A stretch of DNA of 64,000 nucleotides from Gammaproteobacteria bacterium (GCA_022826885.1 JAJDUB010000059.1:7172-71171), one strand, 5' to 3'; shown: positions 4,017 to 54,871, numbered from the stretch's first letter. The notes: generated from the letters alone by a model not told the origin. A program made the numbers and translations.

Positions 4017-4042
4017 CATTTAATCCATGTTATGTACAAGAA

Positions 4043-4645: not shown

Positions 4646-4737
4646 AATGATGTTTAAGGCACTTATTTCATTCAAAGATACTACTTTTTTGCTTGAAGTC
4701 GTGCGAAAAACTGATTGGCTAAACGAGGAGTTTTAGC

Positions 4738-5004: not shown

Positions 5005-5014
5005 GGTAAAGTTA

Positions 5015-5275: not shown

Positions 5276-5393
5276 CGACATCGCCGATTTTGGCTGTAAG
5301 GAGTATTCTTATCCGTAAGCTTGTCCCTTTTTTCAACGCTTCTTTGGAGTTTGATGGCGGCATTGAGGAGGAACCGATGCACCCGGCTGTAAT

Positions 5394-5855
5394 ATGAGAA
5401 TGTCATACTGGAATCACAGAGTAATCAGGAAGCGTCACACCGAAACAGAATCGGTGGCATATCAGGTTCACGAGGTTTATTACCACGAGAACGGCGCCAT
5501 TGAAGGTTGGACAGAAAAACCCGTCGCGCCTATGGGTGAAACGATTGAGGAACTGAGAGAAGATATAAGGTATTTTCTCCATGCGTTCCGTCGTCCAATT
5601 CTGGAAGAAAAAGAAACAGACGAAGGCTCAACTCTTATCCCCGACGATACGGACGATGCAATAAATGACGGCCATTATTTCGAACTCCTGGACCGAACGT
5701 ATGTAGCGTTGGATTACATTTACCAGTTTCTTGGCAGCCACCCGGTAGTAAGAAAAGACAAAACGTTACAAGACACGTACGAAAAAGCCGAAGAGGCCTT
5801 GGCTGAACTCTATCAACAGGCAGGTCGGCTGGAGTTTGACAGAGGTAGCAGCTAA
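5394..5855 (+). CDS. Hypothetical protein
   Basis: 153-aa ORF in the AT-rich islet with N-terminal YWNHRVIR...HEVYY..G...WTEKPV.P.GET.EEL pattern; function unknown. Confidence 0.65.
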   Translation: MRMSYWNHRVIRKRHTETESVAYQVHEVYYHENGAIEGWTEKPVAPMGETIEELREDIRYFLHAFRRPILEEKETDEGSTLIPDDTDDAINDGHYFELLDRTYVALDYIYQFLGSHPVVRKDKTLQDTYEKAEEALAELYQQAGRLEFDRGSS

Positions 5856-5912
5856 GCGGGAAAACTCTGTCGATAATTCCTTAATAACAACATTCATACC
5901 TATCGCAATGTA

Positions 5913-38890: not shown

Positions 38891-39919
38891 ATGAATCAGG
38901 CGGTATTGGAAAACAAGCTCCTGCAGTTGGCTACCGGTCATCAACTGGCGGCCGCCCTGTACTTCGTTACGGTCAATAAAATTCCCGATTGCCTGAAAAA
39001 CGGGCCGCGAACGGCAGAGGATATAGCGGCTGCAGTCGGATTGCCGGCCGGGTCTGTTTACCGCCTGCTGCGGGCGATGACTACATCCGGGATATTCCGT
39101 TTGGAGGGCGGCCGGTTCTCATTGACGGAAATCAGCGACCTGCTGCGTACGGACCATGCCCGGAGCCAGCGTTCCAAGGTCCTGCTCGCTGCAAGCGACC
39201 TGGATGTATGGTCCAGGTTGGGCGAGGCCGTGGAACTGGAGGACGCCATACCCGATGTGAAAAAGGACTGGTATCTCGAATGGGGCAAAGACGAGGACCC
39301 CATCATGATTTTCGACAAGGCGATGCGCTCCTACTATTTTGATGCGCCGGCGCCTCTCCTGGGGGTTTATGATTTCGGCAGCATCAACACCCTGGTGGAC
39401 ATCGCGGGCGGTGATGGCGGTCACCTGATTGAAATACTGAAGGCACACCCGGACATGAAGGGTATTCTCTTCGAGCAACCTGAAACAGCGCGACGTGCGG
39501 AGGGCTATATCAGTGAAGCAGGGTTATCGGGAAGATGTGTGTGTGTCGCTGGAGACTTCTTCAAACCGGAATCCATACCTGGTAACGGTGATGCTTACAT
39601 GATGCGAAACATCATGCATTGCTGGGCCGATGAGCCCTGCAGGCAAATTCTGACAAACATCACTATGCGTATGCCCGATACTGCACGTATCCTTGTCATG
39701 GAACAGAAGCTCCCCTCAAGTGATGAACAACTGAATAACTGCGTGGAACATTGGGGCGTCACTCCGGCGTGGTGGGATATGTTGATGTTATTATGGTTCG
39801 GGGGAGCGGAACGCACCGTAGAGGAATTCGAAACCCTGTATGAGTCTGCCGGTATGAAGCTGGCCAATGTAATGGAAGGCAACCTGGGTACTGTTGTTTA
39901 TGAAGGCGTCAAGGTTTAG
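38891..39919 (+). CDS. SAM-dependent methyltransferase family 2 (O-methyltransferase with dimerisation domain)
   Basis: N-terminal wHTH (YRLLRAM...GIF), LVDIAGGDG, AGDFF, DAYMMRNIMHCWAD, G.ERT..EF. Confidence 0.88.
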   Translation: MNQAVLENKLLQLATGHQLAAALYFVTVNKIPDCLKNGPRTAEDIAAAVGLPAGSVYRLLRAMTTSGIFRLEGGRFSLTEISDLLRTDHARSQRSKVLLAASDLDVWSRLGEAVELEDAIPDVKKDWYLEWGKDEDPIMIFDKAMRSYYFDAPAPLLGVYDFGSINTLVDIAGGDGGHLIEILKAHPDMKGILFEQPETARRAEGYISEAGLSGRCVCVAGDFFKPESIPGNGDAYMMRNIMHCWADEPCRQILTNITMRMPDTARILVMEQKLPSSDEQLNNCVEHWGVTPAWWDMLMLLWFGGAERTVEEFETLYESAGMKLANVMEGNLGTVVYEGVKV

Positions 39920-39945: not shown

Positions 39946-41049
39946 ATGATTTCTGATATTGATGCGTTGATGGACCGGCGCCAGACCGGTTACAGCCTCC
40001 CCCGGCCATTCTATACCGACGCGGACGTTTACCGGTTGGACACCGGGCATGTTTTCAGCAAACTCTGGATGCTGGTCGGTCATGTTTCCCAGATCCCGGA
40101 ACCAGGCGATTATTTCCTGGCTGAAATTGCCGGAGAATCCATATGCGTCGTACGCCGGGATAAAGAGGATATCGGCGCTTTTTACGACGTGAGTCCCCAC
40201 GCCTGTCATGTGCTGCTATTCGAAGGGTTGATATTCATCTGTCTCGCCGGGGATTCTCCGCCTGATGTCGATTCCACGCTGCAGGAAATAGCGCCTTTCG
40301 TGAAACCACAAAATCTGGTAGGCGCCAGGGTCATTCACGAAACCGTCCTGGCTACCGATGCAAACTGGAAACTGGTCGTCGAGAATTTCTGGGAATGTAA
40401 TCACTGCGAACCTTCGCACCCTGAATTCATGACGGTCCATGGTAGAAACTGGGTGCTGGCGATGGGCGCGGGCCTTGGCGCGTGCGTCTCGGAACAGGCT
40501 GAAATGGACTACCGGGAGGAATTCAAGGCATTTGAAGCGCGCGCTCAATCGCTGGGGCATCCTTTCGGTTCAGCCTCGAAGTTGGGCCTGGCGTCAACGG
40601 AGTTCTGGCAGGTCCTGCGTTCTCCGTTGGCGGAAGGTTGTTACTCGGAGACGCGGGACGGCAGAAAGGTGGGACCGTTGATGGGAGACCTCAATGACTT
40701 TGACGGCGGGATGACCCACATCAGTTTCAATCCGCTGGCTTCACTCTGGTTGTGCAACGATCATGCAGTCACATTCAACTTTCGGCCGATGGGGCCCATG
40801 TCTACGGATGTGCATATGATGTGGCTGGTGAACGGGGATGCGGAACCGGACAGGGATTTCACCGTGGAGGAAGTCGCATGGATGTGGACAACGACCGGGC
40901 TTCAGGACAAGACGATCACTGAAAATAACCAGTCCGGCATTAACTCGAGTCGCTATCGGCCGGGGCCGTACTCACTGATGGAGCGGCAGCTTGAAGACTT
41001 TGTGCAATGGTATTTCGCACGGCTGCGAGAGGCCGGCGCCGGCTCCTGA
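39946..41049 (+). pseudogene. GbcA/Stc2-like Rieske oxygenase alpha subunit lacking its Rieske [2Fe-2S] ligands (in-frame deletion)
   Basis: Catalytic domain intact (NWKLVVENFWECNHCEPSHPE; QDKTITENNQSG) but AFYDV runs directly into SPHACHVLLFEGLIF; no CxH...CxxH pair anywhere. Confidence 0.7.
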
Positions 41050-41087
41050 ACAATTTGAACAGCGATACGCAAGGGGAGGCACTGAAG

Positions 41088-42113
41088 ATGGCCAAGATCA
41101 AGGCGGTGTTATTCGGCACCGGCAACATGGGCAGGTTGATAGCCGGATACCTGGTTGAGAAAGGCGTGGAGATCACCGGCGCCGTCAGTCAAACACATGT
41201 AGGACAGGACCTCGGCGATGTGACCCGGATCGGCCGTCCTGTGGGAGTCACGGTCAGTGGGGACCCGGAGGAAATGCTGGCAGGGACCGAAGCCGATATT
41301 GCCGTGTTGGCGACCTGCAGTTCGATGGCGGAACTGTATCCTGACGCCAGCTTGTGCCTGCAACGGGGAATTAATGTGGTGACGATAACGGAAGGGGCGT
41401 TTTATCCCTGGACCTATGACCCCGACATGGCTGCAGATTTGGACAACCTGGCAAAACAGCATGGCGTGACGCTGACGGCCACCGGGGTGCAGGACATATT
41501 CTGGATAAATTCCATCGCACTCCTGACCGGCGCCTGCCACCGGATAGACATCGTCGAATTCGAAGGCACAGCCGATTTCGGGACTCTCGGGCCTGCCGTA
41601 TTGAACAACCTCCCGTTGGGACTGACACCTGAGCAGTTTCAGGAAATGGCCCCTCCACCGGGCGCAAAGCCGCCGGCATCGATAGTGGGAATGGGGTTCG
41701 AGGCATTGATCAACAAATTGCGCCTGACCATCAACAAGGTCGATGGCGGGATAGAGCTTGTGCTGGCAGGTAACGACGTCGAATGCATCGGCTTGAACAA
41801 GGTAATCAGGGCGGGACAGATAAACGGCCTGCGCGAGATCCTGGCGATCGAGACTGCCGAAGGTCCCGTATTTCGCGCAAGATTTGCCGCGAAAATATTT
41901 GAACCGGATGACCGGGAAAACTATACATGGAATATCAGGGGAGTTCCGGACATCCACCTGCAGCAGAATGATGTGCCCAGCGTGGAAATAACCTGTGCTT
42001 CAATCGTTAACCGCATCCCGGATGTCCTGAACGCGGAACCGGGATTTATAACCGCAGAGAAACTTGACACTCCATTTTACCGAACGTCATCACTGGAGAA
42101 TTATATTGATTAA
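41088..42113 (+). CDS. NAD(P)H-dependent amine dehydrogenase / 2,4-diaminopentanoate dehydrogenase-like protein
   Basis: GTGNMG Rossmann motif, GINVVTITEGAFYPW, TLTATGVQDIFW, C-terminal TCASIVNRIPDVLNAEPG. Confidence 0.75.
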   Translation: MAKIKAVLFGTGNMGRLIAGYLVEKGVEITGAVSQTHVGQDLGDVTRIGRPVGVTVSGDPEEMLAGTEADIAVLATCSSMAELYPDASLCLQRGINVVTITEGAFYPWTYDPDMAADLDNLAKQHGVTLTATGVQDIFWINSIALLTGACHRIDIVEFEGTADFGTLGPAVLNNLPLGLTPEQFQEMAPPPGAKPPASIVGMGFEALINKLRLTINKVDGGIELVLAGNDVECIGLNKVIRAGQINGLREILAIETAEGPVFRARFAAKIFEPDDRENYTWNIRGVPDIHLQQNDVPSVEITCASIVNRIPDVLNAEPGFITAEKLDTPFYRTSSLENYID

Positions 42114-43233
42114 CCCACCTTTTCGCGCCGAACACGTAGGCAGTTTACTGAGACCGAAAGCCCTCCTTGAAGCCAGGGAGCAGCTACAGGGAGATGTTTA
42201 CAGTGAATACAAGGGAAGTCTTGCCATTAATGAACTCAAGGATCTTGAGGATCAATGCATAACCGGAATCATTAAAATGCAGGAAGATATCGGCCTGCAC
42301 GGCATCACAGACGGAGAGTTTCGCCGCCGCTCCTGGTTCCAGGACTTCATGCTGGAAATGAACGGCGCGTCAATCAGGTTCGTCGAGGGGACATTCGTGG
42401 ACGGCAAAGGGCATAAACTTCCCACACCGACTCCGCACTTTGATGAAAAACTCCAACCCCGTTCGGGAATTACCACTGAGGCATTTACCTTTCTGGCAAG
42501 CAAAACAAGCCGGACAGCCAAGGCAACCATACCCTCACCGAACATGGCTCACGTATTCGGCGGCAGGGCTGCCATCAGTGAAACCGCTTATCCGGACCTC
42601 GAGGAATTCTGGGAGGATCTGGCGTTGGTATACCGGCAGGAACTGGTCCACCTGGCAGAACTCGGATGCCGCTATGTCCAGGTTGACGATTGCGCGTTCA
42701 CGATGCTCCTGGATGATGATGTACGCGGCCGGCTGGAGGAACGGGGCGATGACACGGAACAACTGTTGGACACGTATATCCGGGCCATCAACCTGGCCTT
42801 GCAGGACCGTCCGGAAGGGATGGTGATAGCAACACACCTCTGTCGCGGCAACAACCGGGGGCACTGGCTTGCTTCCGGAGGCTACGATGTTGTAGCGGAA
42901 AAACTGTTCAACCAGTTACAGGTCGATGCCTTTTTTCTCGAATATGATTCGTCACGCGCCGGCACTTTTGAGCCGCTCCGCTTCATGCCGCGGGATAAAA
43001 CCGTCGTATTGGGGCTGATTTCCTCCAAGGTACCGGATCTCGAAAACAGCAACGAGGTCAAGCAACGAATTCAAGACGCGAGCAAATATGTTCCTGTTGA
43101 AAATCTCTGTCTGAGTCCGCAATGCGGATTCGCCAGCGTCTTTCAAGGCAATCCGGTCACCGATGCGCACCAGCGCGCCAAGCTGTCACTGATTGTTGAT
43201 GTGGCAAACGATGTGTGGGGCGGCCTGGAGTAA
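42106..43233 (+). CDS. Core (single-barrel) cobalamin-independent methionine synthase II family protein (YxjH/MetE C-terminal-like)
   Basis: PPFRAEHVGSLLRP, TDGEFRR, THLCRGN, FFLEYD, LSPQCGFAS zinc ligands; TTG start after GGAG. Confidence 0.88.
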   Translation: MINPPFRAEHVGSLLRPKALLEAREQLQGDVYSEYKGSLAINELKDLEDQCITGIIKMQEDIGLHGITDGEFRRRSWFQDFMLEMNGASIRFVEGTFVDGKGHKLPTPTPHFDEKLQPRSGITTEAFTFLASKTSRTAKATIPSPNMAHVFGGRAAISETAYPDLEEFWEDLALVYRQELVHLAELGCRYVQVDDCAFTMLLDDDVRGRLEERGDDTEQLLDTYIRAINLALQDRPEGMVIATHLCRGNNRGHWLASGGYDVVAEKLFNQLQVDAFFLEYDSSRAGTFEPLRFMPRDKTVVLGLISSKVPDLENSNEVKQRIQDASKYVPVENLCLSPQCGFASVFQGNPVTDAHQRAKLSLIVDVANDVWGGLE

Positions 43234-43239
43234 GTTGCT

Positions 43240-43266
43240 GACGCTCTGAACAAGTCCAGAGGTTCC
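43240..43266. repeat. Short palindromic element, copy 2
   Basis: GACGCTCTGAACAAGTCCAGAGGTTCC aligns with 31524-31552; lies between convergent genes. Confidence 0.5.
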
Positions 43267-43272
43267 TCACGA

Positions 43273-43809
43273 TTACAAAGTTAATTCCCGGACAAGATCG
43301 CCTGTCAATGGGAAAAACCTGTCTGCGACATTCTTCAGTTCGTTTGACGGATCGGCCTGGTACTCAAAAAAAGCATTCTCGACTTCCTTGCCGTGTCTTT
43401 GTACCGCTTCGATCGCGGGACGCAGTGCCGGGCGGCGGCTGATAACTACGGCAATATCATAACTGTCGTTCATGCCTTGCTCGAACATGTCCAATGCCAG
43501 CATGACGTCAACCCCCTGGTCCAGGTACATGCCTCCCCGCACCTGCATCTCCGTCGCTCTGGTGCTGAAACCCTGATCGGCCATAAGGCTCAACAATTCA
43601 CGCTGTGCCGTTTCCTTTTTCGGGTAGCACTGCCCCGGGTAAATCGCAAGCCAAGCAGACTTGCCGGTTACCGTGCGCTCGCCTGCGATGTGATCTACCA
43701 GGGCTGAATAATCAATCCTCCAGGGCATGCCCTGTCCCCTGAGTCCGTCCAGCAACCAGCCGGCGTCGATGAAAGCGCTTACCCTGGGCTGAAGTATCTG
43801 TGTCGTCAT
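43273..43809 (-). CDS. NYN (LabA/DUF88, PIN-like) domain protein with degenerate active site
   Basis: FIDAGWL, QGVDVMLALDM, YDIAVVISRRPALRPAIEAVQRHGKEVE, ELKNVADRFFPL. Confidence 0.75.
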   Translation of the reverse strand: MTTQILQPRVSAFIDAGWLLDGLRGQGMPWRIDYSALVDHIAGERTVTGKSAWLAIYPGQCYPKKETAQRELLSLMADQGFSTRATEMQVRGGMYLDQGVDVMLALDMFEQGMNDSYDIAVVISRRPALRPAIEAVQRHGKEVENAFFEYQADPSNELKNVADRFFPLTGDLVRELTL

Positions 43810-43850
43810 GATCTGTCTTGTCCCCGTTACGATATCAGGCCATGCCTATT

Positions 43851-44711
43851 TCAGCAGGACTCGGCAAAACGCAGGATCGCCTGCGAGAGCTCGCTTTCTG
43901 AATCAAACAACCTGAATATATTGGTGGTATGGTCTTCACCCTCTACATCGAGGTAATCGGCCCGTAACCCCTTATTTCTCCATGCCGCTACAAACTCCTC
44001 CGATTGCCGGTGGAACTCGACCGACTCCTCCGCCCCTAACGCGACAAGCAATGGTGGTCCCGAAGCGGGAATGTGAAACAGCGGGCTTTCATTGAATACC
44101 ACATCGCCTGTCAGTTGCAGTTTGGCCTGCAGCCAGCAGTACCGAAACGGTCGCAAATCAAACAATCCGCTGATCGGGATACCTCCCCGGATTACGTCAG
44201 CCGGCATTCCGTAATCCTCCCAGTTGGTAACAGCCAGCATTCCCACCTGGTGGCCACCGGCAGAGTGGCCGGTCACGAAAATACGTCCGCTATCACCATT
44301 GATACTCTCTGCGTTTCGATAAGCCCATGCAACCGCAAGCCTGCTCGCGGCCGTGATGTCCGGAATGCCGACCTTTGGACACAATGCGTAGTCGCTGGAA
44401 ATGCAGGCGAAGCCGAGATCCGCCAGTCCCTTAATGCAGAAGTTGAACAGCTTTCGTGTCCCCAGACGCCACCATCCGCCATGAATGAAGATAATTATCG
44501 GGGAGTCCTTTTTCCTTGCAGGGAATACGTCAATCCGCTCTTCGTCGCGCGCCCCGACGGGAATATCCACCTGGTGTTCCAGCGCTTCAAGCGTTTGGGA
44601 GCTTCTGTGTATAAACGTATCGAAATAGGGAATGATGTCCCACAGGTGATTCTCGATATCGAGTTGCGGATCAATCTGCGCTTGATCCATGAAGTTGTCA
44701 TAGGGGTTCAC
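43851..44711 (-). CDS. Alpha/beta hydrolase, arylformamidase (kynurenine formamidase)-like
   Basis: FIHGGWW oxyanion motif, GHSAGG nucleophile, DHTT His region. Confidence 0.82.
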   Translation of the reverse strand: MNPYDNFMDQAQIDPQLDIENHLWDIIPYFDTFIHRSSQTLEALEHQVDIPVGARDEERIDVFPARKKDSPIIIFIHGGWWRLGTRKLFNFCIKGLADLGFACISSDYALCPKVGIPDITAASRLAVAWAYRNAESINGDSGRIFVTGHSAGGHQVGMLAVTNWEDYGMPADVIRGGIPISGLFDLRPFRYCWLQAKLQLTGDVVFNESPLFHIPASGPPLLVALGAEESVEFHRQSEEFVAAWRNKGLRADYLDVEGEDHTTNIFRLFDSESELSQAILRFAESC

Positions 44712-44730
44712 TATCTTATCCTGTTATTCA

Positions 44731-45933
44731 CTATTCGAATATTTCCGGGGCGGATGATTGCAGGCTTTCAATATACCACTTGTGGAAGTGCCAGAGCGTT
44801 GCTTCGCTATGTGAGGTCCTCCCCTGGACTGCAAAACCGGACCGTTTTCCTCTGTACATCTGCGTAATGCCCCAGAAATCCTCATCTATTACCAACTTGG
44901 CGCTCTGTTTGTAGGCTTCAAATTTTTCCGTGAAATCCGGTGCTTCTGCCGCTTCTTTGCTGACCCCAATTCCATAGCGTCCCGTTGTCCTGTTATGGGT
45001 CTGCGGGTTTATCTGCGTGATAAACAAAAGATCCGGATTGAAGTACCAGCTGAAATTGGGAAATACGATACCCCCCACCGCAGCATTCATATCGGACTCA
45101 TCGAGGTTGCCGGGCAGGGCAAAACCTCCTGTCAGGGAATAATCGTCGGGGTTCAGGATGTCCGAGTTGTCACCTGAGGGAAGACGAAACAGGCAATATG
45201 CAGGCATATTGGTGTTTTCAATTACTGTCTTGCCGGCCGGAACAGAATCGCCCAGTGATATTTCATGGACGGAATCCGTGTGGTAGTTTTCCGCAAATAT
45301 ATCTACTACACATTTCCAGTTCGCCTCAAGATCAAATTCCCCCATTTCGAAATAAACCATGTCATCCGTCTCATGACGCAGGAACTTCGGTTCCAGGTCA
45401 GCGAGTCGGGGGGCCAGCTCCGGTACGGGCCCGCGTTCCATGTTCACGAAGATAAAGCCTCGCCAGACTTCCAGGTGAAACTCATGAAGGCGCCAGTCCC
45501 CGGCTGAAAAATCTCTTGCATTTTCCATGAGCGGGGCGCCCCGAAGCGTGCCATCAAGATTGTATATCCAGTTATGGTAGCGACACCTGAGCAGATTGCA
45601 GTTGCCGCGATCATGGGCAACAGGAAAATTCCGGTGGACACACACATTGGATAACGCATGCAGTTTATCGGCCCTGTCCCGTATTACCAGTACCGGCTCC
45701 TCACAAAAATCAACGGTGAAGTAATCGCCGGGTTTGCCGACCTCGCTGATATGACCGACGGGAATCCAGGACGATTTCAGCAAATGTTCCTTTTCCAGTT
45801 CAAAAACAGCCGGATCGCTGTAGAAGCGCGGGGGGATGGTCGTCGCGGAGTTATATTCGAGCAGGCAACCTTCCACTTCCTCTGCCCGAAACCGATTCGA
45901 TACCTGCCTGGTGCTGACTGGGGTGGTAGACAT
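44731..45933 (-). CDS. Rieske oxygenase alpha subunit, choline monooxygenase/CntA/GbcA-like group
   Basis: NVCVHR...CRYHNW Rieske ligands, ANWKCVVDIFAENYHTDSVH, IDED. Confidence 0.88.
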   Translation of the reverse strand: MSTTPVSTRQVSNRFRAEEVEGCLLEYNSATTIPPRFYSDPAVFELEKEHLLKSSWIPVGHISEVGKPGDYFTVDFCEEPVLVIRDRADKLHALSNVCVHRNFPVAHDRGNCNLLRCRYHNWIYNLDGTLRGAPLMENARDFSAGDWRLHEFHLEVWRGFIFVNMERGPVPELAPRLADLEPKFLRHETDDMVYFEMGEFDLEANWKCVVDIFAENYHTDSVHEISLGDSVPAGKTVIENTNMPAYCLFRLPSGDNSDILNPDDYSLTGGFALPGNLDESDMNAAVGGIVFPNFSWYFNPDLLFITQINPQTHNRTTGRYGIGVSKEAAEAPDFTEKFEAYKQSAKLVIDEDFWGITQMYRGKRSGFAVQGRTSHSEATLWHFHKWYIESLQSSAPEIFE

Positions 45934-45985
45934 TGAAAACCTCTTTATATGGTCATATTACAGGGCGCCTCTGAAGTGTATCATT

Positions 45986-46513
45986 TCACCTGAATACCTC
46001 CATATACTCGATGATAAGTTCCCGTTGTTCCGCGTTGCTCAACCCGGCAAACGCCATGCGGTTGCCCGGCACCAGTTCGGTAGGTTTTTCCAGAAATTCG
46101 TTCATGTTCTCTGCAGTCCATATTTTGCCGTAATCCTGCATCGCCCTGGAATAGGCAAAACCTTCAATAGAACCCGCCGCCCTGCCAAATACCTCTGCAA
46201 GGGGAGGACCGACAACAGACGGTTGGCCCGGTTCCACGGAGTGGCAGACGCCGCAACGAAGCCTGAACAATTTTTCGCCTTCACTGTTGATTGCGCCCCT
46301 GGTTACTTTTGTGACGGCTGCATGCCTGTCCTCTTCGCCGCGCATGGAACTAGGCGTATCGCCGTTACAGCCGGATATGCAACAGGCTGCCAGGACCAGC
46401 ACGCTACATATTACGTTTTTTTTCTTTACCGGTTTTTCAATGATGTAAGAAACTGGTTTCAATATCTGTCCGGGTCTGTTCGTGAGTTTGTTGTTACACC
46501 GGTAGCGCGGCAC
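45986..46513 (-). CDS. Class I cytochrome c (c2-like), probably lipoprotein-anchored
   Basis: CGVCH heme motif, VGPPL..VFGR.AG...F.YS, PGNRMAFAG axial Met, N-terminal VLAACCISGC lipobox. True start uncertain and probably downstream of 46513. Confidence 0.88.
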   Translation of the reverse strand: MPRYRCNNKLTNRPGQILKPVSYIIEKPVKKKNVICSVLVLAACCISGCNGDTPSSMRGEEDRHAAVTKVTRGAINSEGEKLFRLRCGVCHSVEPGQPSVVGPPLAEVFGRAAGSIEGFAYSRAMQDYGKIWTAENMNEFLEKPTELVPGNRMAFAGLSNAEQRELIIEYMEVFR

Positions 46514-47660
46514 CCTTTTTCAGTGAACGGTCAATTGTAAGGAACAAATACCAGGAGAATGAATTGGCAATCAATACGATCCAGCCCATCGAAGCGGCGC
46601 CAAAGTTCTCGATAATATATCCGCCAAGATACGGACCGACCGCGCCGGTCAACAGGAAAGCTCCTGCAGTGATGGCTGCATCACGCCCCGATGGATCCTG
46701 GTCTGCTGCATAGCCAAGGAAATAGGGCACAAGGAAGTACATGCCCACTACGTTGAATGCCGCTCCCAGGCGAAATGCAAGCGGGTGGTGCCAATGGGAC
46801 ATCGTATTGATCGCGACAATCAGGATAAGGACGCCCAGGGTGAGCGGAAGCAGGCGTCCAAACCTGGCGCCGACCAGCGTTGCCGACAAAGCGCCGAATA
46901 CTGAAACCAGCGCCGCCATTCCAACCGCGTTGTGAATTTCTCCTTCACCCAGACCCGCCATGTCTCCCAGCAGGTAATAGAAAGACCACATGGCGCCGGC
47001 CCCGAGAGACACTATAAATACAGCAATAACCAGCGTTACGAGTTTCAGGGAGAAAATACCATGAGCGGGGAGCGCAGCGGGGGTTGAGCGGACTCGTCCC
47101 TGGTCAGCAGTGCCTGATAACAGGGGTATGAGCAGTGACAAAACGGCTATGCCGGCAAAAATCGTCGGAAAAACAATATATTCCAGGTTGAAATACCCGG
47201 CCGTTAGCGGCAGGGAAAAAACGGCCGCCGAACAAAACAGGATGGCAGCGATGTTTATTATGCCGTAAGCCCTGTCGGGTTCCCTGAAGTTTGCCAGTGA
47301 AGCGCTGGCGGCAGCAAGCATTGCCCCTTCGCCAAAACCGGTAAGCGGGCGTGAAATCAACAGTAAATCGTAATCCTGGATTGTCATCGACCAGGCTGCT
47401 CCGGAAAGTGTGACAACGGCGCCGATAGTTGCAATCCGGAGTAATGACAGTTTGTCGAGCAGTTTACCGAACAGGGCAGCGCTCAAAGCGATTGTGGTCA
47501 TCTCCACCGATGCGACAAGGCCTCCTGCGGCTTCTCCTACGTCATACCGAACCATTACCTCATGTATGAGCGAAGGTTGCAGCCACCAAGCGATATTGGC
47601 AATACAATAGGCTGCTGCGCTACCGACGAGGACTCTGCCCTGAAGTATGACTGGCGCCAT
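46494..47660 (-). CDS. MFS transporter
   Basis: About 12 TM helices, SRPLTGFGEG, VGARFGRLLP; start set at ATG 47660 because the longer ORF-track N-terminus overlaps the opposite gene. Confidence 0.82.
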   Translation of the reverse strand: MAPVILQGRVLVGSAAAYCIANIAWWLQPSLIHEVMVRYDVGEAAGGLVASVEMTTIALSAALFGKLLDKLSLLRIATIGAVVTLSGAAWSMTIQDYDLLLISRPLTGFGEGAMLAAASASLANFREPDRAYGIINIAAILFCSAAVFSLPLTAGYFNLEYIVFPTIFAGIAVLSLLIPLLSGTADQGRVRSTPAALPAHGIFSLKLVTLVIAVFIVSLGAGAMWSFYYLLGDMAGLGEGEIHNAVGMAALVSVFGALSATLVGARFGRLLPLTLGVLILIVAINTMSHWHHPLAFRLGAAFNVVGMYFLVPYFLGYAADQDPSGRDAAITAGAFLLTGAVGPYLGGYIIENFGAASMGWIVLIANSFSWYLFLTIDRSLKKGAALPV

Positions 47661-47871
47661 AAACTGCCTCTTGTCTCCGGTTAACGGCAAAATGACATCA
47701 TAGCCTATCCCACTGTTACATTCCTGTCTGTCACACTCGAATGTTACACGATCATTTGACTGGACAGAGGGCTCCAGGCTATGTGCTATGATGCTGAAGA
47801 TTGCGAAAGTACCACCATCTGCCGGCGCCGCGACCCAGCGTCCGGGCGCCGGATATTCAGGAGGGCGAATC

Positions 47872-49329
47872 ATGGCTAAATCAGAAACAGAGTCCGGAAC
47901 ACATAGTGGCCGGGAAGGGGTAAGCCGCAGAAGCGTGTTAGGTGGTATGGCGGCCATAGGAGGTGCCGTTGCCACGGGGTCCGCGCTGCAGGGGTGCACA
48001 GACGGCGGGGATGCGGAAGCACCGGATGTCATTGTGATCGGTGCAGGATTTGCCGGTTGTGTGAGCGCTCGGGACCTGGCTCACCGGGGTTACAAGGTCA
48101 CATTGCTGGAGGCGCAGGGGCGGCTTGGCGGTCGGGCCTTTACCTCGGAATTCGCCGGAAAGGTTTACGAGGCCGGCGCGCTGATGCTGTCCTGGAAGGA
48201 ACCGTTCATGTGGACAGAGGTGATGCGCTACGGACTCGAAATAGAACCCATAGTCGGTGTCCTCGCTCCGGAAGTGTGTTACTGGATCACTGACGGCAAG
48301 GCGATGAGCGCGCCGGCCGAGGAATTCTACGAGATATTCGTACCGCCAATATTTAAGTTCTTCGAGGATGTCGGGACGGTATTTCCGTATCCTTATGCTC
48401 CTTTGACAAACAGGGAAGCCGTGGAGAAACTCGACAGGCTTTCTGTCATGGACCGGGTCAAGACGTTGCCTACCCAGCAGGAGCGTGATTTCGCAGACAA
48501 CTGGGCATCAGCTCCATTGGGCCGTGCCGGGACCGATGTCGGGCTTGCCTCATCGATGGCGCTGACCAGCGCTTTCGGCGGTGTCCAGGCATCATTGGAA
48601 GGGGCCAGTTATCGCTTGAAGAAGGGAACGAGTAACCTGGTAGAGAAGATCGTTGAAGATGGAGGATTTGAGTACCGTCTGCAGTCTCCCGTTTCCTCCA
48701 TTGATCAATCCGGTACGGGAGTCACAGTTACCATTGAAAGCGGCGAGACTTTCACCGCCTCTGCCGTCGTATTGGCGACACCGGTCAATACCTATGAAAA
48801 TATCGATTTTACGCCACCACTGAGCCCGGAAAAACTGACCGTGTCAAAGGGGAAGATGGCAGGCGGGAAAGGCGCACATATCAACGCGAGATTGAAAGGT
48901 AAAATGCCGCCTCTACTGGCTGTGGCTCCCAGTCACATGCCGCTGCACCTGCTGCTGACGACAGACATCCTGGAAGACAGCGTGATAGTCGATGGCTACG
49001 GGCCGGATGCGAGCCTGTTTGACGGGGGAGACCCGGAGGCGGTTCAGGCGGTCATTCGCCAGTGGATACCGGATGTTGAGGTCATGGAAACCGTTTCATA
49101 CAGGTGGGATCTGGATCCTTTTTCACAAGGCACCTGGTGTGGTTTTGGCCCGGGTGTTCTGAGCAAATATTATGAAGCCCTTCGTGAACCGGAAGGCAAC
49201 GTATATTTTGCAAGCGGTGACAGCGCAACAGCTTTCAGAGGTTTTATGGAGGGAGCGATAGAGTCGGGCGTACGGGTTGCCCGGGATGTCCACAATGCGC
49301 TGAACTCCCGCAAGCAGGACCTCGGATAA
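47872..49329 (+). CDS. Flavin amine oxidoreductase (MAO family; NicA2/Pnao/6-HLNO-like) with Tat signal and lipobox
   Basis: SRRSVLGG twin-arginine motif then ALQGC; DVIVIGAGFAG, EAQGRLGGR, WDLDPFSQGTW, GFMEGAIESGVRVA; GGAGG RBS. Confidence 0.88.
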   Translation: MAKSETESGTHSGREGVSRRSVLGGMAAIGGAVATGSALQGCTDGGDAEAPDVIVIGAGFAGCVSARDLAHRGYKVTLLEAQGRLGGRAFTSEFAGKVYEAGALMLSWKEPFMWTEVMRYGLEIEPIVGVLAPEVCYWITDGKAMSAPAEEFYEIFVPPIFKFFEDVGTVFPYPYAPLTNREAVEKLDRLSVMDRVKTLPTQQERDFADNWASAPLGRAGTDVGLASSMALTSAFGGVQASLEGASYRLKKGTSNLVEKIVEDGGFEYRLQSPVSSIDQSGTGVTVTIESGETFTASAVVLATPVNTYENIDFTPPLSPEKLTVSKGKMAGGKGAHINARLKGKMPPLLAVAPSHMPLHLLLTTDILEDSVIVDGYGPDASLFDGGDPEAVQAVIRQWIPDVEVMETVSYRWDLDPFSQGTWCGFGPGVLSKYYEALREPEGNVYFASGDSATAFRGFMEGAIESGVRVARDVHNALNSRKQDLG

Positions 49330-49361
49330 AACAGATAATTGCGGATAACGGAGAACGTTCC

Positions 49362-50579
49362 ATGAGTCAAATTGATCCGGGTTCGCTGCATTTAATCCCG
49401 GAAACAGGGCCGTCAAAAAACGGGGATCAACAACAGGATGTTTCTAGCGGCAAGAATTTCCGTTTTTTCGACAACAGGCAAAAATACCTGCTCTTTGTAA
49501 ACACCTGCAGCGAGAAGGAGATCATTGCGAAACGGGTGGGCATGGAACTGGCGAATATCCGGCCGACTCCTCCCGCGCTACGCATCTTTGATGCTGGAAT
49601 GGGGGACGGTTCGGTTCTCACCCGGGTCATGCGCGAGACACACCGCCGTTTCCCGACCATTCCGCTCTACATAGCATCGAAGGAAATCAGCCTCGAGGAC
49701 GTCAGGCTGTCCCTGTCAAAGATGTCCGACCGTTTTTTTGAGCATCCCTCAACGGTCCTGGTGCTCACCAATATGTATTATTCAGAGGCGCCATGGATGT
49801 CCCCGAAGAAGGTTGAAGCCGCCCAATCCATGGTATGGAAGGAGGTCGCGCTTGCAGGGACGTCCGCACACGAGTTCGACGAGCAACTGGATGATCTGGA
49901 CGGTTTTCTCGCCCATAACTGGCAGGCTTCGCACAGCCCGGTAACGGGTAACCCTGTCTATGAGCGCCCTGTGGTGCTGGTGATATACAGGGAAGACTAC
50001 CGGTTTCTCCTGGACGATGTCATTCCCCGGCAAGGTAAGGTCAGGGCCGAATATGACCTGGTGATTGCATCACAACCCTATCGGTTAAGAGTTTCAGATG
50101 AATTCAAGGCCGGTAAAGTATTGAGCCCCCTGGTCCAGGCACTGGGGCGGGGCGGCCGGCTGCTTGGCATTCATTCCTGCGGCAATGATCCGGGCCTGGA
50201 AATCATCAGGGAAGTGTGGCCCGACGAAGATCCCTACAAGAGCAACAGGCATCAATTACTGCGTGCGTTGAAACTCGAGTTGGGTAAAGAAGCGAAGAAA
50301 TACAATTTCAATGCATATTCGGACGCACGCTCAATTTTCAGGTATGACATGCATACATTGCCTACGGAGATATCGGCCAGTATCGGGACTTCCACCTTGT
50401 TTGCGGCCTGGAACTCGGCCGTGTATGTCGCCCAGATAGAAGACGAACGGTTGACTGAGGCAATCACAGACAACAGGTATCTTCTTGCGACCGACAAGAT
50501 ATTAAAGAAACACGGCGGCCTCTGGTTTTATGACGAATCTTTTGCGGTGTCGCGTAAAAAAGAACTCAGCAAGCTCTGA
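49362..50579 (+). CDS. Hypothetical protein with class I SAM-methyltransferase-like motif
   Basis: RIFDAGMGDG glycine-rich motif I, KEISLED, YDLVIASQPY; co-oriented with mgsABC-gmaS, 30-nt gap. Confidence 0.6.
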   Translation: MSQIDPGSLHLIPETGPSKNGDQQQDVSSGKNFRFFDNRQKYLLFVNTCSEKEIIAKRVGMELANIRPTPPALRIFDAGMGDGSVLTRVMRETHRRFPTIPLYIASKEISLEDVRLSLSKMSDRFFEHPSTVLVLTNMYYSEAPWMSPKKVEAAQSMVWKEVALAGTSAHEFDEQLDDLDGFLAHNWQASHSPVTGNPVYERPVVLVIYREDYRFLLDDVIPRQGKVRAEYDLVIASQPYRLRVSDEFKAGKVLSPLVQALGRGGRLLGIHSCGNDPGLEIIREVWPDEDPYKSNRHQLLRALKLELGKEAKKYNFNAYSDARSIFRYDMHTLPTEISASIGTSTLFAAWNSAVYVAQIEDERLTEAITDNRYLLATDKILKKHGGLWFYDESFAVSRKKELSKL

Positions 50580-50609
50580 ATTAAAAGGTCCCTTAGTCTC
50601 TTATAAATT

Positions 50610-51506
50610 ATGTGCGGAATAGTCGGATTATTCAGTAAATCACCGGTCATCGAAGAACGTCTGGGCGAGTTGCTGGCGCGCATGCTCATCGAGATGACGG
50701 AACGGGGTCCGGACAGCACCGGTGTCGCCGTTTATCGTGATCGTGCGCCCGGAGCAATGACCAAGATAACCTTGCTCAGCAGGGAGGGTGAGTTCGACTG
50801 GCAGGCGATGAATGATGAGATTTCCCGGGTTTTCCCGGGCTCCGGCAGCTTGAGGCCCACGGAAAACCATGCCGTTGCGACCATTGACGCACCGGCGAGC
50901 CGGTTTCGGGAATGGGTTGCCCGGGAACACCCGGATCTGTATATCAACAGCACCGGCGCCCGTATGGAGATCTACAAGGAAAAAGGCCTGCCGTCTGATG
51001 TAGTAGACCGCTTCGGGGTCTCCGGCATGCAGGGCACCCACGCCCTGGGGCATACGCGCATGGCGACGGAGAGCAGGGTTACCACTGAACATTCACATCC
51101 TTTTTCCACGGGCGAGGATTTATGCCTGGTCCATAACGGTTCTCTCTCCAACCATAATCGACTACGTGAGTTTCTGAAAAAGAAAGGCATAGATTTCCAT
51201 ACGGATAACGATAGTGAAGTGGCGGCGGGCTACCTGACCTGGCAATTACGGGAGGGCATGTCATTGGATGAAGCCCTGCAAGCGGCATTGTTGGACCTGG
51301 ACGGTTTTTATACGTTTGCCATAGGCACCAGGGACGGGTTTGCCGTACTGCGCGACCCTATTGCCTGCAAACCCGCGGTGATGGCGGAAACCGGCGACTG
51401 GGTGGCGATGGCGTCCGAATACCGGGCCATAGCCGTATTGCCGGGCGCCGACCAGGCCGAATGCTGGGAACCGGAACCGGCGACGGTCTACAGTTGGAGC
51501 CACTGA
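50610..51506 (+). CDS. mgsA: N-methylglutamate synthase subunit A (class II glutamine amidotransferase)
   Basis: MCGIVG N-terminal Cys, RGPDSTG, HTRMATES, VHNGSLSN, NDSEVAA; followed by GXGXG, FMN and GlnT genes. Confidence 0.85.
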   Translation: MCGIVGLFSKSPVIEERLGELLARMLIEMTERGPDSTGVAVYRDRAPGAMTKITLLSREGEFDWQAMNDEISRVFPGSGSLRPTENHAVATIDAPASRFREWVAREHPDLYINSTGARMEIYKEKGLPSDVVDRFGVSGMQGTHALGHTRMATESRVTTEHSHPFSTGEDLCLVHNGSLSNHNRLREFLKKKGIDFHTDNDSEVAAGYLTWQLREGMSLDEALQAALLDLDGFYTFAIGTRDGFAVLRDPIACKPAVMAETGDWVAMASEYRAIAVLPGADQAECWEPEPATVYSWSH

Positions 51507-51511
51507 AACAG

Positions 51512-52198
51512 ATGCGCGTGTTTAACCTGGACGAGGTCAGTTTAAGGGAACTGAACCAGGCATTACACGATTGTAACGGCAGTGATGAGGCTTCCGCCTG
51601 GACGGTGACGAACACAAAGGGAAAACATGCCGTCGCCGCGGGTATTGACGCTCCACTTGAAGTCACAGTTAACGGCCACGTAGGATATTATTGCGCCGGC
51701 ATGAACAAACAGGGGCAGGTCACGATCCGGGGTAATACAGGTCCCGGGGTCGCGGAGAACATGATGTCGGGACTGGTGCGGGTGACGGGCAATGCTTCAC
51801 AGTATGCCGGCGCCAGCGCCCACGGCGGACTGCTGGTTATCGAGGGCGATGCCGGTTCCCGCTGCGGCATCTCCATGAAGGGCGTGGATATTGTCGTCAG
51901 GGGTTCCATCGGGCACATGGGCGCATTCATGGCGCAGAAAGGACGCCTGGTGATCTGTGGTGATGCCGGAACGGCCCTGGGCGATTCGCTGTATGAGGCG
52001 CGTATCTACGTAAAGGGAAAAGTTGCCGGCCTTGGTGCGGACTGTGTGGAGAAACCGATGGCGGAAGAGCACGAACGGGAGCTTGAACAGTTGCTGGAAC
52101 AAGCCGGCATCAACGGCGTGGATGCAGCCGGTTTCCGGCGTTACGGTTCCGCCCGCAAGCTGTATCATTTCAACGTGGATAACGTGGATGCGTATTGA
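51512..52198 (+). CDS. mgsB: N-methylglutamate synthase subunit B (GXGXG/GlxC)
   Basis: Repeated GxxG beta-helix motifs (GHVGYYCAGMN, GNTGPGVAENMMSG, GSIGHMGAFMAQKG). Confidence 0.87.
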   Translation: MRVFNLDEVSLRELNQALHDCNGSDEASAWTVTNTKGKHAVAAGIDAPLEVTVNGHVGYYCAGMNKQGQVTIRGNTGPGVAENMMSGLVRVTGNASQYAGASAHGGLLVIEGDAGSRCGISMKGVDIVVRGSIGHMGAFMAQKGRLVICGDAGTALGDSLYEARIYVKGKVAGLGADCVEKPMAEEHERELEQLLEQAGINGVDAAGFRRYGSARKLYHFNVDNVDAY

Positions 52199-53532
52199 TG
52201 CCTGAAAAAGATATCACGGAATGGTTGCGCGAATCAGCCACGTTCCCGCGTTCGGTCATTGCCGATATCCAGCGCGCCGCGCGCACCGGCATATACGATA
52301 TTCGCGGTTTCGGCGCAAAACGCGCACTGCCGACGTTCGACGACCTGGTGTTTCTCGGCGCCAGCATGACGCGTTATCCCCTGGAAGGCTACCGTGAACG
52401 TTGCGACACCAACGTGACTCTGGGCACGCGTTATGCGAAGAAGCCGCTGGAGTTAAAAATACCCGTCACGATTGCCGGCATGAGTTTCGGCGCATTGTCG
52501 GCGCCGGCAAAGGAAGCATTGGGCCGTGGCGCAACCGAAGTGGGCACCAGCACTACTACCGGAGATGGCGGCATGACCCAGGAAGAGCGGGAGCATTCCG
52601 AACTGCTGGTTTACCAGTTGCTGCCATCCCGCTATGGGATGAACCCGGATGACCTGCGCCGGGCAGATGCCATTGAAGTGGTGGTGGGCCAGGGCGCTAA
52701 ACCGGGGGGAGGCGGCATGCTGCTGGGCCAGAAGATCAGCGCCCGGGTTGCGGAGATGCGCGACCTGCCGGAAGGGATCGACCAGCGCAGCGCCAGCCGC
52801 CATCCCGACTGGACCGGGCCTGACGATCTGGCGATCAAGATCCGGGAACTGCGGGAGATTACCGATTGGGAAAAACCCGTCTACATCAAGATAGGGGCTT
52901 CCCGGACTTATTTCGATACCATGCTGGCGGTCAAGGCCGGGGCGGACGTCATCGTCGTTGACGGAATGCAGGGCGGCACCGCAGCAACCCAGGAGGTCTT
53001 TATCGAACACGTCGGCATCCCCACCCTGCCGGCGGTAAGACTGGCCGTGGAAGCCCTGAAAGAAATGGACATGCACCGCAAAGTCCAGTTGATCGTATCC
53101 GGTGGGATACGCAGCGGCGCCGACGTGGCCAAGGCGCTGGCGCTGGGCGCCGATGCGGTTTCCATCGGCGTGGCAGCCCTGATTGCCCTGGGCGACAACA
53201 GCCCGGAATTTGAAGAGGAATACCGCAGGCTGGGCACGTCGGCCGGCTTTTATGATGACTACCAGGATGGTCGCGACCCGACAGGAATTTCCACCCAGAG
53301 CGATGAACTCGCGGCCCGGTTTGACCCGGTCAAGGGAGGCAGGCGTCTCGCCAATTATCTCCGGGTATTGACGCTGGAGACCCAGACCCTGGCGCGCGCC
53401 TGCGGCAAGAACCACGTGCACAACATGGAACCGGAGGACCTGGCGGCGTTGACTATTGAGGCGGCCGCCATGGCCAGGGTGCCGCTTGCCGGCACTGACT
53501 GGGTTCCTGGTGAAGACAGACCAAAAAAGTAA
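52198..53532 (+). CDS. mgsC: N-methylglutamate synthase subunit C (FMN-binding glutamate synthase domain)
   Basis: AGMSFGALS, TTGDGGM, GQGAKPGGGG, SRHPDWTGPDDL, DGMQGGT, SGGIRSGAD; TGATG coupling to mgsB. Confidence 0.88.
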   Translation: MPEKDITEWLRESATFPRSVIADIQRAARTGIYDIRGFGAKRALPTFDDLVFLGASMTRYPLEGYRERCDTNVTLGTRYAKKPLELKIPVTIAGMSFGALSAPAKEALGRGATEVGTSTTTGDGGMTQEEREHSELLVYQLLPSRYGMNPDDLRRADAIEVVVGQGAKPGGGGMLLGQKISARVAEMRDLPEGIDQRSASRHPDWTGPDDLAIKIRELREITDWEKPVYIKIGASRTYFDTMLAVKAGADVIVVDGMQGGTAATQEVFIEHVGIPTLPAVRLAVEALKEMDMHRKVQLIVSGGIRSGADVAKALALGADAVSIGVAALIALGDNSPEFEEEYRRLGTSAGFYDDYQDGRDPTGISTQSDELAARFDPVKGGRRLANYLRVLTLETQTLARACGKNHVHNMEPEDLAALTIEAAAMARVPLAGTDWVPGEDRPKK

Positions 53533-53549
53533 ATGAGGAGAAAACCGTC

Positions 53550-54857
53550 ATGACAACCGATCTGGCGCAAGTTGCAAAAGAGAGAGGCATCAAATATTTC
53601 CTGATCAGTTTCGTCGACCTGTTCGGCACGTTGAGATCGAAACTGGTCCCGGCGCGGGCAATAGCGGATATGCAGGCGGAAGGCGCCGGGTTCGCCGGGT
53701 TCGCCGCGTGGCTGGATATGACCCCTGCTGACCCCGACATGTTCGGCATACCGGACCCGGACAGCCTGATCCAGTTACCCTGGAACAGGGAGGTCGGCTG
53801 GCTGGCCTCCGACCTGTGGATGAACGGCAAGGAAGTGGAAGCCTCGCCGCGCATCGTCCTGAAACGGCAACTGGCGCAGGCGGAGCAGGCGGGTTACCGG
53901 ATGAAAACGGGCGTTGAATGTGAATACTTCCTCATCAACCAGGAAGGCACGGCCATCTCCGACCCGGCCGATATACAGAGCAAGCCCTGTTATGATCAAC
54001 AGGCATTGATGCGCCGCTATCCCGTCATCAAGGCAATATGCGACTGTATGCTGGAACTGGGGTGGGGGCCGTACCAGAACGACCACGAGGACGCAAACGG
54101 CCAGTTCGAAATGAACTGGGATTATGCCGATGCCCTGACAACGGCCGACCGGCATGTCTTTTTCAAGTACATGGTCAAGACCATTGCGGAGCAGCACGGC
54201 TACCGGGCCACGTTCATGCCGAAACCCTTTGCCGAGTTGACCGGCAACGGCTGCCATACCCATGTTTCCTTGTGGGATGCAACAGGCCGGACAAACCTGT
54301 TCCTGGATGACGGCGATGAAATGGGCCTGACCGCGCTCGCATATCATTTTCTTGGCGGCATCATGCATAATGCCACTGCGCTTTGCGCTCTGTTCAACCC
54401 TACCGTAAACAGCTACAAGCGGATCGATGCGCCGCGTACCCTGTCAGGCGCATCCTGGTCGCCGAGTTCGGTCACCTACACCGGCAATAATCGCACACAC
54501 ATGATCCGAATCCCGGATGCAGGCCGGTTCGAACTGCGCCTCATGGATGGCTCCACCAATCCGTACCTGTCCCAGGCCGGCATCCTCAGCGCCGGACTGG
54601 ATGGTATGAAGAACGAACGTGACCCGGGCAAACCCCTGCATATCGACATGTACGCGGAAGGGCACAAGGTGAAATCCGCACGCAAATTACCGGCAACACT
54701 GCTGGATGCGTTGCGCCTGCTGGAAAAGAGCAGGATATTACGCGCCGGACTGGGCGATGAGTTTGTGGATTCCTACATCAAGCTGAAAATGCAGGAATGG
54801 GGGGAGTACACGTCGCACCTCAGTGACTGGGAACGCAGGAATACCCTGGATTGCTGA
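53550..54857 (+). CDS. gmaS: Gamma-glutamylmethylamide synthetase (type III glutamate-ammonia ligase, GlnT)
   Basis: GFAGFAAWLDMTPADPD, DHEDANGQFEMN, FMPKPF..LTGNGCH, NNRTHMIR, FELRL; adjacent to mgsABC. Confidence 0.88.
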   Translation: MTTDLAQVAKERGIKYFLISFVDLFGTLRSKLVPARAIADMQAEGAGFAGFAAWLDMTPADPDMFGIPDPDSLIQLPWNREVGWLASDLWMNGKEVEASPRIVLKRQLAQAEQAGYRMKTGVECEYFLINQEGTAISDPADIQSKPCYDQQALMRRYPVIKAICDCMLELGWGPYQNDHEDANGQFEMNWDYADALTTADRHVFFKYMVKTIAEQHGYRATFMPKPFAELTGNGCHTHVSLWDATGRTNLFLDDGDEMGLTALAYHFLGGIMHNATALCALFNPTVNSYKRIDAPRTLSGASWSPSSVTYTGNNRTHMIRIPDAGRFELRLMDGSTNPYLSQAGILSAGLDGMKNERDPGKPLHIDMYAEGHKVKSARKLPATLLDALRLLEKSRILRAGLGDEFVDSYIKLKMQEWGEYTSHLSDWERRNTLDC

Positions 54858-54871
54858 ATCCGGGCATTCCC

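Follow-up and report, generated by a model that had tools for sequence, protein, structure and literature searches.

Three gene modules lie side by side at a flavin amine oxidoreductase–methylamine locus, probably through recent juxtaposition of separately derived parts in a sponge-associated gammaproteobacterium

Results and discussion

We analyzed a 64,000-nt stretch of DNA from Gammaproteobacteria bacterium (GCA_022826885.1 JAJDUB010000059.1:7172-71171; hereafter the window, from whose start all coordinates count), in which the gene for a flavoprotein amine oxidoreductase (the flavoenzyme) is followed on the plus strand by an unannotated gene, here called X, and then by mgsABC and gmaS, which encode N-methylglutamate synthase and gamma-glutamylmethylamide synthetase (Table 1). 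A reading of this DNA from its sequence alone (the sequence-only reading) had proposed that these genes, together with divergently transcribed neighbors, make up one route from an N-methylated amine to methylamine assimilation. The co-orientation and tight spacing on which that proposal was built are borne out by the coordinates, with gaps of 32 nt between the flavoenzyme gene and X, 30 nt between X and mgsA, and 17 nt between mgsC and gmaS, and no terminator-like site was found in the first or the second of these gaps. We nevertheless favor, with moderate confidence, a different explanation, in which three modules with separate histories were recently brought together in a sponge-associated gammaproteobacterium, rather than a single pathway having evolved as such.

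Homology breakpoints and co-existing haplotypes

Because homology to related loci breaks off at gene borders, the locus is a mosaic of an amine module (~38.9-49.3 kb), an X cassette (49317 to ~50572), and a methylamine module (50610-54858). On the left side, two related loci (L005/L006) that encode a flavoenzyme with 84% identity show nucleotide homology to the window over 40197-49310 and not beyond, and carry Lipocalin_5, cupin, and unrelated genes downstream; in a third locus (L087, flavoenzyme 90% identical), homology to the window stops at 49304. On the right side, a locus that is 98% identical in nucleotides over X-mgsABC (L003) begins to match only at 49317 and has a TonB-dependent receptor gene upstream, and full-length relatives of X match the window from 49338 or 49432 to 50560-50572. 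Finally, two loci whose GmaS is 92% identical (L092/L093) match exactly 50610-54858, with an HTH_3-cupin regulator gene before mgsA. From these breakpoints, we infer that the three modules are historically independent.

The close relatives also point to the event that produced the first joint. The left block of L087 is 93-99% identical to the window at the protein level and continues as flavoenzyme-orf122-TonB receptor, and its receptor fragment has the same protein sequence (100% identity) as the receptor encoded upstream of X-mgsABC in L003. Since the two loci share this identical fragment, a sister haplotype reads flavoenzyme-orf122-TonB-X-mgsABC, with ~3 kb in place of the 32-nt gap of the window. 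As orf122 is likewise a member of the flavoenzyme clusters in more distant relatives (L088-L090, 58-67% identical to the L087 copy), the window form would most simply be a deletion or an allelic replacement; that is, the tight layout would have arisen when the ~3 kb holding orf122 and the TonB receptor gene were lost or replaced in one haplotype. Between the haplotypes, the cytochrome c-MFS-flavoenzyme segment has 60-90% protein identity and is thus far more diverged than its flanks.

Both haplotypes were found in the same sponge DNA runs, and in two runs loose ends were also seen that the other haplotype would produce. The direct flavoenzyme-X joint was recovered from independent sponge-metagenome DNA runs and four host-labelled projects, in some cases on long contigs. 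An assembly artefact was rejected as the source of this junction, as continuous contigs cross it in independent DNA runs, in three further loci (L004, L007, and L008), and in RNA contigs. In the sponge samples, X is preceded by three or more co-existing arrangements, as seen over 49301-49362 in DNA runs X2, X14, X15, and X18 and RNA run X26: the direct joint, TonB-X, and a third with other sequence before the X start, whose loose ends read "...TAAATAGTCACGGATACTGG..." at 49362 (run X2) and "...TTAATAAATAATCACGGATACTGAGG..." at 49358 (RNA run X26).

Co-conservation across relatives

Co-conservation, whose absence would count against the sequence-only reading, was absent from the close-clade, the 80 distant, the mgs-side, and the X-side loci compared. 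Outside the window species, flavoenzyme relatives (61-84% identical) were found in three independent contexts comprising five loci (L005/L006, L088/L089, and L090), and none of these had mgs or gmaS genes nearby. What recurs there is of another kind: NYN and hydrolase genes and Lipocalin_5 in all three contexts, an extradiol dioxygenase in L005/L006 and L088/L089, TonB receptors in L088-L090, cytochrome c in L005/L006 and L088, and lower meta-cleavage genes only in L088, while L088 and L090 hold orf122, an Abhydrolase_1-type hydrolase, Aldedh, and a luciferase-like monooxygenase with a flavin reductase. Judged by these gene contents, the clade contexts bear the hallmarks of a cluster for aromatic amine catabolism. 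Among 80 metagenome loci of more distant family members (33-40% identity), cytochrome c was adjacent in 54 and TonB receptors were present in 13-17; mgsABC was found in none, and a glutamine synthetase (GS)-like match, 29-30% identical, in two.

The same separation appeared from the methylamine side. No flavoenzyme gene stands beside mgsABC-gmaS in the three relatives' loci (L092, L093, and L094), where the module instead reads regulator-mgsABC-gmaS (L092) or mgsABC-gmaS-mgdABCD (L094).

The flavin amine oxidoreductase

Having delimited the modules, we examined what each is likely to encode. The flavoenzyme open reading frame (ORF) opens at 47788, and translation probably begins at the ATG at 47872, which is preceded by the Shine-Dalgarno sequence GGAGGG. 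The N-terminus so defined shows a twin-arginine motif (SRRSVLGG), a hydrophobic stretch, and then a lipobox-like Cys (LQGC). The arginine pair of this twin-arginine translocation (Tat) motif is invariant in 14 aligned homologues, and a QGC lipobox-like motif follows the Tat signal in most members of the close flavoenzyme clade. The protein is predicted to be exported to the periplasm through Tat and is possibly lipid-anchored.

The best solved relatives of the flavoenzyme are Pnao (7u6l/7e7h; 9e-89 for 7u6l) and, next, NicA2 (~1e-74). It aligns over its full length with 7u6l and 5ttj and has the flavin-dependent amine oxidase (FAO) fold with an N-terminal FAD-binding GxGxxG motif. Both NicA2 and Pnao act in the periplasm as dehydrogenases, with a cytochrome c from an adjoining gene as the electron acceptor (PMC9396064, PMC12224317), and Pnao frees methylamine from pseudooxynicotine (PMC9396064). 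More than 100 further FAO members with a Tat signal and an adjoining cytochrome c have been flagged, and many of those tested act likewise (PMC9396064, PMC12224317). The window protein resembles these FAO/cytochrome c dehydrogenases in its Amino_oxidase fold, its Tat signal, and a nearby class I cytochrome c gene, and it is accordingly predicted to be a cytochrome-c-type dehydrogenase of the NicA2/Pnao kind for some amine. It differs from NicA2 and Pnao in that the cytochrome c gene is divergently transcribed and lies beyond the MFS gene instead of between two flavoenzyme genes, in its probable lipobox Cys, and in a His that replaces the active-site Lys across the close clade.

The kinship with Pnao that the sequence-only reading had noted thus holds insofar as Pnao is the top solved match, while orthology does not, since both the pocket and the gene context differ. 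Identity to Pnao-type enzymes is ~36-40%. The flavoenzyme keeps the equivalents of Pnao Tyr422/Trp424, of the aromatic cage Trp434/Phe470, and of the docking-surface residues Phe98/Ser100. When five Pnao pocket residues listed in PMC9396064 (Trp113, Trp220, Asn224, Trp240, and Lys345) were mapped onto it, Trp220 was kept, whereas Trp113, Asn224, Trp240, and Lys345 were replaced by Met, Pro, Leu, and His, respectively. The direct neighborhood consists of MFS, Rieske, hydrolase, and NYN genes, and no second FAO gene or nicotine-pathway context (nicA2, cycN between two flavoenzymes, or pyridine-ring genes) was found among the scanned ORFs of the window. We therefore rejected the assignment of the flavoenzyme as a Pnao orthologue, given the differing pocket residues, the modest identity, and the lack of nicotine-pathway neighbors.

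The replaced Lys marks the clade. The His of "GGKGAHINARLKG" stands in place of the Lys near flavin N5 (Lys345 in Pnao, Lys340 in NicA2) in 11 of 11 close-clade members (61-98% identity), and more distant relatives have Lys or Gln at this position. The exchange may be suggestive with regard to reoxidation, which in enzymes of the NicA2/Pnao type is slow with O2 and fast with the cognate cytochrome c. The flavoenzyme thereby defines a small uncharacterized clade with His for the conserved Lys.

Class I cytochrome c, which carries an N-terminal extension of ~75 aa, is encoded one gene away from the flavoenzyme and is also kept in L005/L006, L007, L008, L087, and L088. By analogy, it is the presumed electron acceptor of the flavoenzyme, as the sequence-only reading had suggested; this agrees with the published Tat-FAO/cytochrome c dehydrogenases (PMC9396064, PMC12224317) and with the adjacency seen in 54 of the 80 distant loci.

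Gene X

The X family is very large, highly conserved, and widespread in Proteobacteria: no fewer than 8000 proteins in the database matched X at E <= 0.001, and among the top 120, which mostly measure 440-514 aa, identity to X is 68-100%. A typical member (~474 aa) has a helix-turn-helix (HTH)-like head and a methyltransferase-like body. The conserved N-terminal head (~68 aa) is missing from the window X and from L003, L004, L007, and L008, and its last ~11 codons are left as untranslated sequence. The body is 87% identical to a full-length member (P0005) and retains every invariant block as well as the motif-I-like loop FDAGMGDG. No sequence relative of X was found in the PDB, and the AlphaFold model was poor (pLDDT 57), with weak matches to S-adenosylmethionine (SAM) methyltransferase folds (E >= 0.03, none at E <= 0.001). 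The "SAM-fold" label given to X earlier is therefore weakly supported by its motif-I-like loop and by these fold matches.

Within the species, dN/dS of X is 0.045-0.096, which indicates strong purifying selection and led us to reject the idea that X is a decaying remnant. Because this headless copy is under such selection, the body appears to work without the head, which favors an enzymatic or ligand-binding role over a purely DNA-binding one. For the family at large, a methyltransferase-like body of a widespread unnamed group would thus function without its DNA-binding-like head.

The survey of the family (loci including L001 and L009-L086) placed X in other surroundings than those of the window. 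Genes for mgs or gmaS occurred within 10 kb of X in two of 80 X-bearing genomes, both of the window's own species (L007 and L008), and a methylenetetrahydrofolate reductase (MTHFR)-like gene stood directly downstream of X in 38 of the 78 other genomes, where the window has mgsA instead. Sulfur amino acid metabolism genes and MetE-like genes also recur near X in other genomes. A role as a regular N-methylglutamate cluster member (a "glxA-like" first gene) was rejected, as none of the 78 other genomes had mgs/gmaS within 10 kb. Since mgs/gmaS lie near X only in the window species and the MTHFR-like partner is present in 38 of 78, X is best read as a passenger from methyl-cycle contexts and not as a component of the N-methylglutamate pathway. 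Compared with the typical family member, which has the HTH head and the MTHFR-like partner, the window X shares the body, lacks both head and partner, and precedes mgsA.

The methylamine module

GmaS scored 672.7 bits on TIGR03105 (cut-off 469.6) and aligned end to end with the Rhodovulum GmaS (RhGmaS) structure 7cql (E 5e-194). In a residue-by-residue alignment using the catalytic and pocket residues listed in PMC7948447, it was identical to RhGmaS at the catalytic Asp177, Glu186, and Arg312; the methylamine-pocket residues (Tyr147, Gln175, Glu179, Asn188, and Lys30') were all kept, as were the GmaS-specific Ala48' and Trp300, which replace Asp50' and a Glu-flap residue of GS. By these features, the protein is a genuine GmaS. 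The adjoining mgsABC genes have the order mgsA-mgsB-mgsC-gmaS and the domain make-up of the N-methylglutamate pathway, although the real start of mgsB may lie slightly downstream of 51506.

In gene order and domains, the module matches the N-methylglutamate pathway loci of Methyloversatilis, Methylocella, and Methylobacterium (RhGmaS, PMC7948447). It departs from them in lacking mgdABCD, in having the foreign gene X where a regulator usually stands, and in being followed by aroB-aroK. The missing genes encode the four-subunit N-methylglutamate dehydrogenase, and no sarcosine-oxidase-like gene was found among the scanned ORFs of the window; in the relative at L094 (86% identical), mgdABCD comes directly after gmaS. 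The proposed N-methylglutamate route for methylamine is thus represented here by a genuine GmaS and mgsABC, without the mgdABCD that would complete it in the window.

Transcription across the joints

The RNA data are contigs from sponge metatranscriptomes that hold no strand information and whose depth is a poor measure of expression. In three runs from two studies, RNA contigs (49274-49682, 49281-49539, and 49282-49562) lead from the last ~50 nt of the flavoenzyme gene into X, which shows continuous transcription between the flavoenzyme 3' end and X. The X-mgsA gap is bridged by contigs 50514-50825 and 50559-50681 (the latter twice), and others span mgsA to mgsC (50652-52337) and mgsC-gmaS (53242-53641). 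For the MFS gene, no RNA contigs were found in the four runs compared there, which argues against plain DNA contamination.

Positions 49261-49273 were covered by no RNA contig in any of the five runs compared, and a separate transcript start near 49274 is compatible with these data. The suggestion that the genes form one transcript therefore stands for the joins from the flavoenzyme 3' end to X, X to mgsA, and mgsC to gmaS, and falls short at read-through from the body of the flavoenzyme gene. Contig depth was apparently lower over the flavoenzyme than over X-mgs, subject to the limits of depth as a measure. A consensus-type site at 49145-49173, the only one in the 3' end of the flavoenzyme gene, was considered as a candidate X promoter but misfits the RNA contig starts near 49274-49282.

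At the other end of the module, one metatranscriptome contig (53661-55101) starts within gmaS, continues past its stop at 54857, and enters the convergent aroB (54872-55951, minus strand), which points either to convergent transcripts that overlap or to a degree of DNA carry-over.

Readings of the locus

In the favored explanation, the Tat-exported flavoenzyme would oxidize the C-N bond of an amine, probably of the aromatic or alkaloid type, by hydride abstraction. The electrons would pass to the adjacent class I cytochrome c and from there reach the respiratory chain, in the manner reported for NicA2 and Pnao, and hydrolysis of the imine would give an aldehyde and ammonia or a small amine. 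Separately, GmaS would join free methylamine to glutamate, and MgsABC would turn the product into N-methylglutamate (the upper N-methylglutamate pathway); mgsABC-gmaS probably serves the plentiful methylated amines of the host. After the rearrangement, transcripts would extend from the flavoenzyme 3' end into X-mgsABC-gmaS.

Several observations weigh against mere juxtaposition. The island holds GbcA/CntA-like Rieske oxygenases and an amine-dehydrogenase-family enzyme, which fits the chemistry of N-methylated or quaternary amines, and it lies within 3 kb of the methylamine genes in both haplotypes. The direct joint is the major form in many samples from several hosts, with a contig depth of 443x in one run; because it is the major form so widely, the fused form has persisted and could be advantageous. 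Furthermore, as RNA contigs run from the flavoenzyme 3' end into X and from X into mgsA, the modules are at least partly co-expressed. Statistically, one rearrangement cannot be told apart from a selected, cluster-forming event.

These points bear chiefly on an integrated route, in which the periplasmic flavoenzyme would oxidize a secondary N-methyl amine at the C-N bond of its larger chain, as Pnao does with pseudooxynicotine, to give an aldehyde and methylamine, the latter entering the cell and being captured by GmaS/MgsABC as a nitrogen or one-carbon source, and in which the fusing deletion would have been selected because it couples the expression of the modules. This is chemically reasonable, and Pnao, the nearest characterized relative, does release methylamine (PMC9396064); the aromatic cage (Trp and Phe) and the equivalent of Pnao Trp220 are kept, the island has N-demethylase-type Rieske and amine-dehydrogenase-type genes, and co-orientation, gaps of 30-32 nt free of terminator-like sites, RNA contigs over both gaps, and the dominance of the fused haplotype in several hosts would all be expected. 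Even so, we consider it unlikely. The flavoenzyme is as distant from Pnao-type enzymes as stated above, with four pocket residues replaced; the N-methylglutamate pathway co-occurs with it neither in the three close-clade contexts outside the species nor in any of the 80 distant loci; the modules meet at a fresh breakpoint, with X as an unrelated passenger; mgdABCD was not found in the window; and the RNA data show an MFS gene without contigs, lower contig depth over the flavoenzyme (a poor measure), and the uncovered 49261-49273 in five runs. It is likewise doubtful that selection favored the fusing deletion on the ground that the flavoenzyme would free methylamine from a host-derived secondary N-methyl amine, such as an N-methylated aromatic amine or a sponge alkaloid. 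Were it so, the fused operon would be a newly assembled "strip and assimilate" route, with the older unfused haplotype still circulating.

A further alternative, which we regard as quite improbable, is nitrogen scavenging without any hand-off. Each module would draw nitrogen from amines supplied by the host, one from a larger amine as ammonia and the other from free methylamine, and read-through after the deletion would put the two under one control that responds to nitrogen or amines, so that the layout would be of use although no pathway is formed. In its favor, sponge metatranscriptomes contain transcripts of both modules, the bacterium is established as a sponge symbiont, and regulators of the relatives are missing here (GerE-type in L006/L088; HTH_3-cupin before mgsA in L092). 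Nevertheless, the window yielded no identifiable regulator or operator, expression is poorly gauged by contig depth, and the proposal is inseparable from neutral juxtaposition on present data.

If the coupling were true, it would tie the growing group of periplasmic cytochrome-c-dependent flavin amine dehydrogenases, almost none of which has an identified substrate, to methylamine assimilation, and would show one deletion assembling a pathway within a population of symbionts. On present evidence, the locus has a more modest value: fused and unfused haplotypes occur together in sponge samples, a natural pair with which coupling can be tested.

Neighboring genes of the amine island

The features of the locus are listed in Table 1. 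Among the divergent genes, the transporter (MFS), electron acceptor (cytochrome c), and Rieske oxygenase named in the sequence-only reading are present, while the hydrolase it had labeled a formamidase matches lipases and esterases better: these are its best solved relatives, a kynurenine formamidase reaches 1.7e-11, and a hormone-sensitive-lipase (HSL)/Abhydrolase_3 type fits better than a formamidase, which was unsupported as the best assignment. The intact Rieske protein has the carnitine monooxygenase CntA as its closest solved relative (see Table 1).

Table 1. Features of the locus, in window coordinates
Feature	Coordinates	Strand	Evidence or remark
O-methyltransferase (Methyltransf_2 + dimerisation domain), left part of amine island	38891..39919	+	Pfam; kept in L007, L008, L087
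GbcA-like Rieske oxygenase alpha subunit	39946..41049	+	NCBIfam GbcA 233 bits, under cut-off
Native NAD(P)H amine dehydrogenase family member (DAP_DH_C)	41007..42113	+	Pfam; PDB 6iaq 7.5e-70, 6iau "Amine Dehydrogenase" 3e-50
Core MetE-like (Meth_synt_2, PRK06520-type) methyltransferase	42064..43233	+	NCBIfam 373 bits vs cut-off 313
NYN-domain protein	43273..43809	-	Pfam
Alpha/beta hydrolase, HSL / Abhydrolase_3 / BD-FAE type	43851..44711	-	Pfam, PDB matches
Intact Rieske oxygenase alpha subunit	44731..45933	-	Pfam; CVH...CRYH motif; PDB 6y9c 9e-28
Class I (mitochondrial/c2-type) cytochrome c	45986..46513	-	Domain matches
MFS transporter, divergent from flavoenzyme	46494..47660 (start approximate)	-	Domain match; true start probably Met near 47660
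Tat-signal flavoprotein amine oxidoreductase, Pnao/NicA2 family	47872..49329	+	PF01593 165 bits
Recombination/deletion joint	49304..49317	.	Homology ends; DNA-run loose ends at 49301 and 49317-49320
X, unannotated, 405 aa, without family match	49362..50579	+	ORF; sequence relatives
mgsA, class II glutamine-amidotransferase-like subunit of N-methylglutamate synthase	50610..51506	+	Pfam
mgsB, GXGXG subunit	51461..52198	+	Pfam; L004 gene call = 228 aa
mgsC, FMN / Glu_synthase subunit	52195..53532	+	Pfam 290 bits
gmaS, gamma-glutamylmethylamide synthetase	53550..54857	+	TIGR03105

The left part of the island shows signs of loss. In the left, GbcA-like Rieske gene, an in-frame loss of ~48 aa at 40170-40230 takes out both CxH...CxxH [2Fe-2S] motifs, while the L006 homologue is intact, and the window protein is probably inactive; gene calling in L087 gives the shortened form too (367 aa, without a Rieske-domain match). 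Because this oxygenase lacks its [2Fe-2S] ligands, and because the ring-cleavage dioxygenase and GerE regulator of L006 are missing, the amine island of the window species is best read as eroded.

The amine dehydrogenase-family gene sits between the broken Rieske gene and the core MetE-like gene, and this trio is kept in L005/L006 and L087. The NYN and BD-FAE/Abhydrolase_3 hydrolase genes are adjacent in every sampled context of the flavoenzyme clade (L005/L006 and L087-L090), also where the surrounding genes differ. Downstream of gmaS, the convergent aroB-aroK genes are followed by PBP1A and priA. Elsewhere in the window, the G+C content is markedly low at 4001-6000 (0.43), compared with 0.52-0.60 in other parts.

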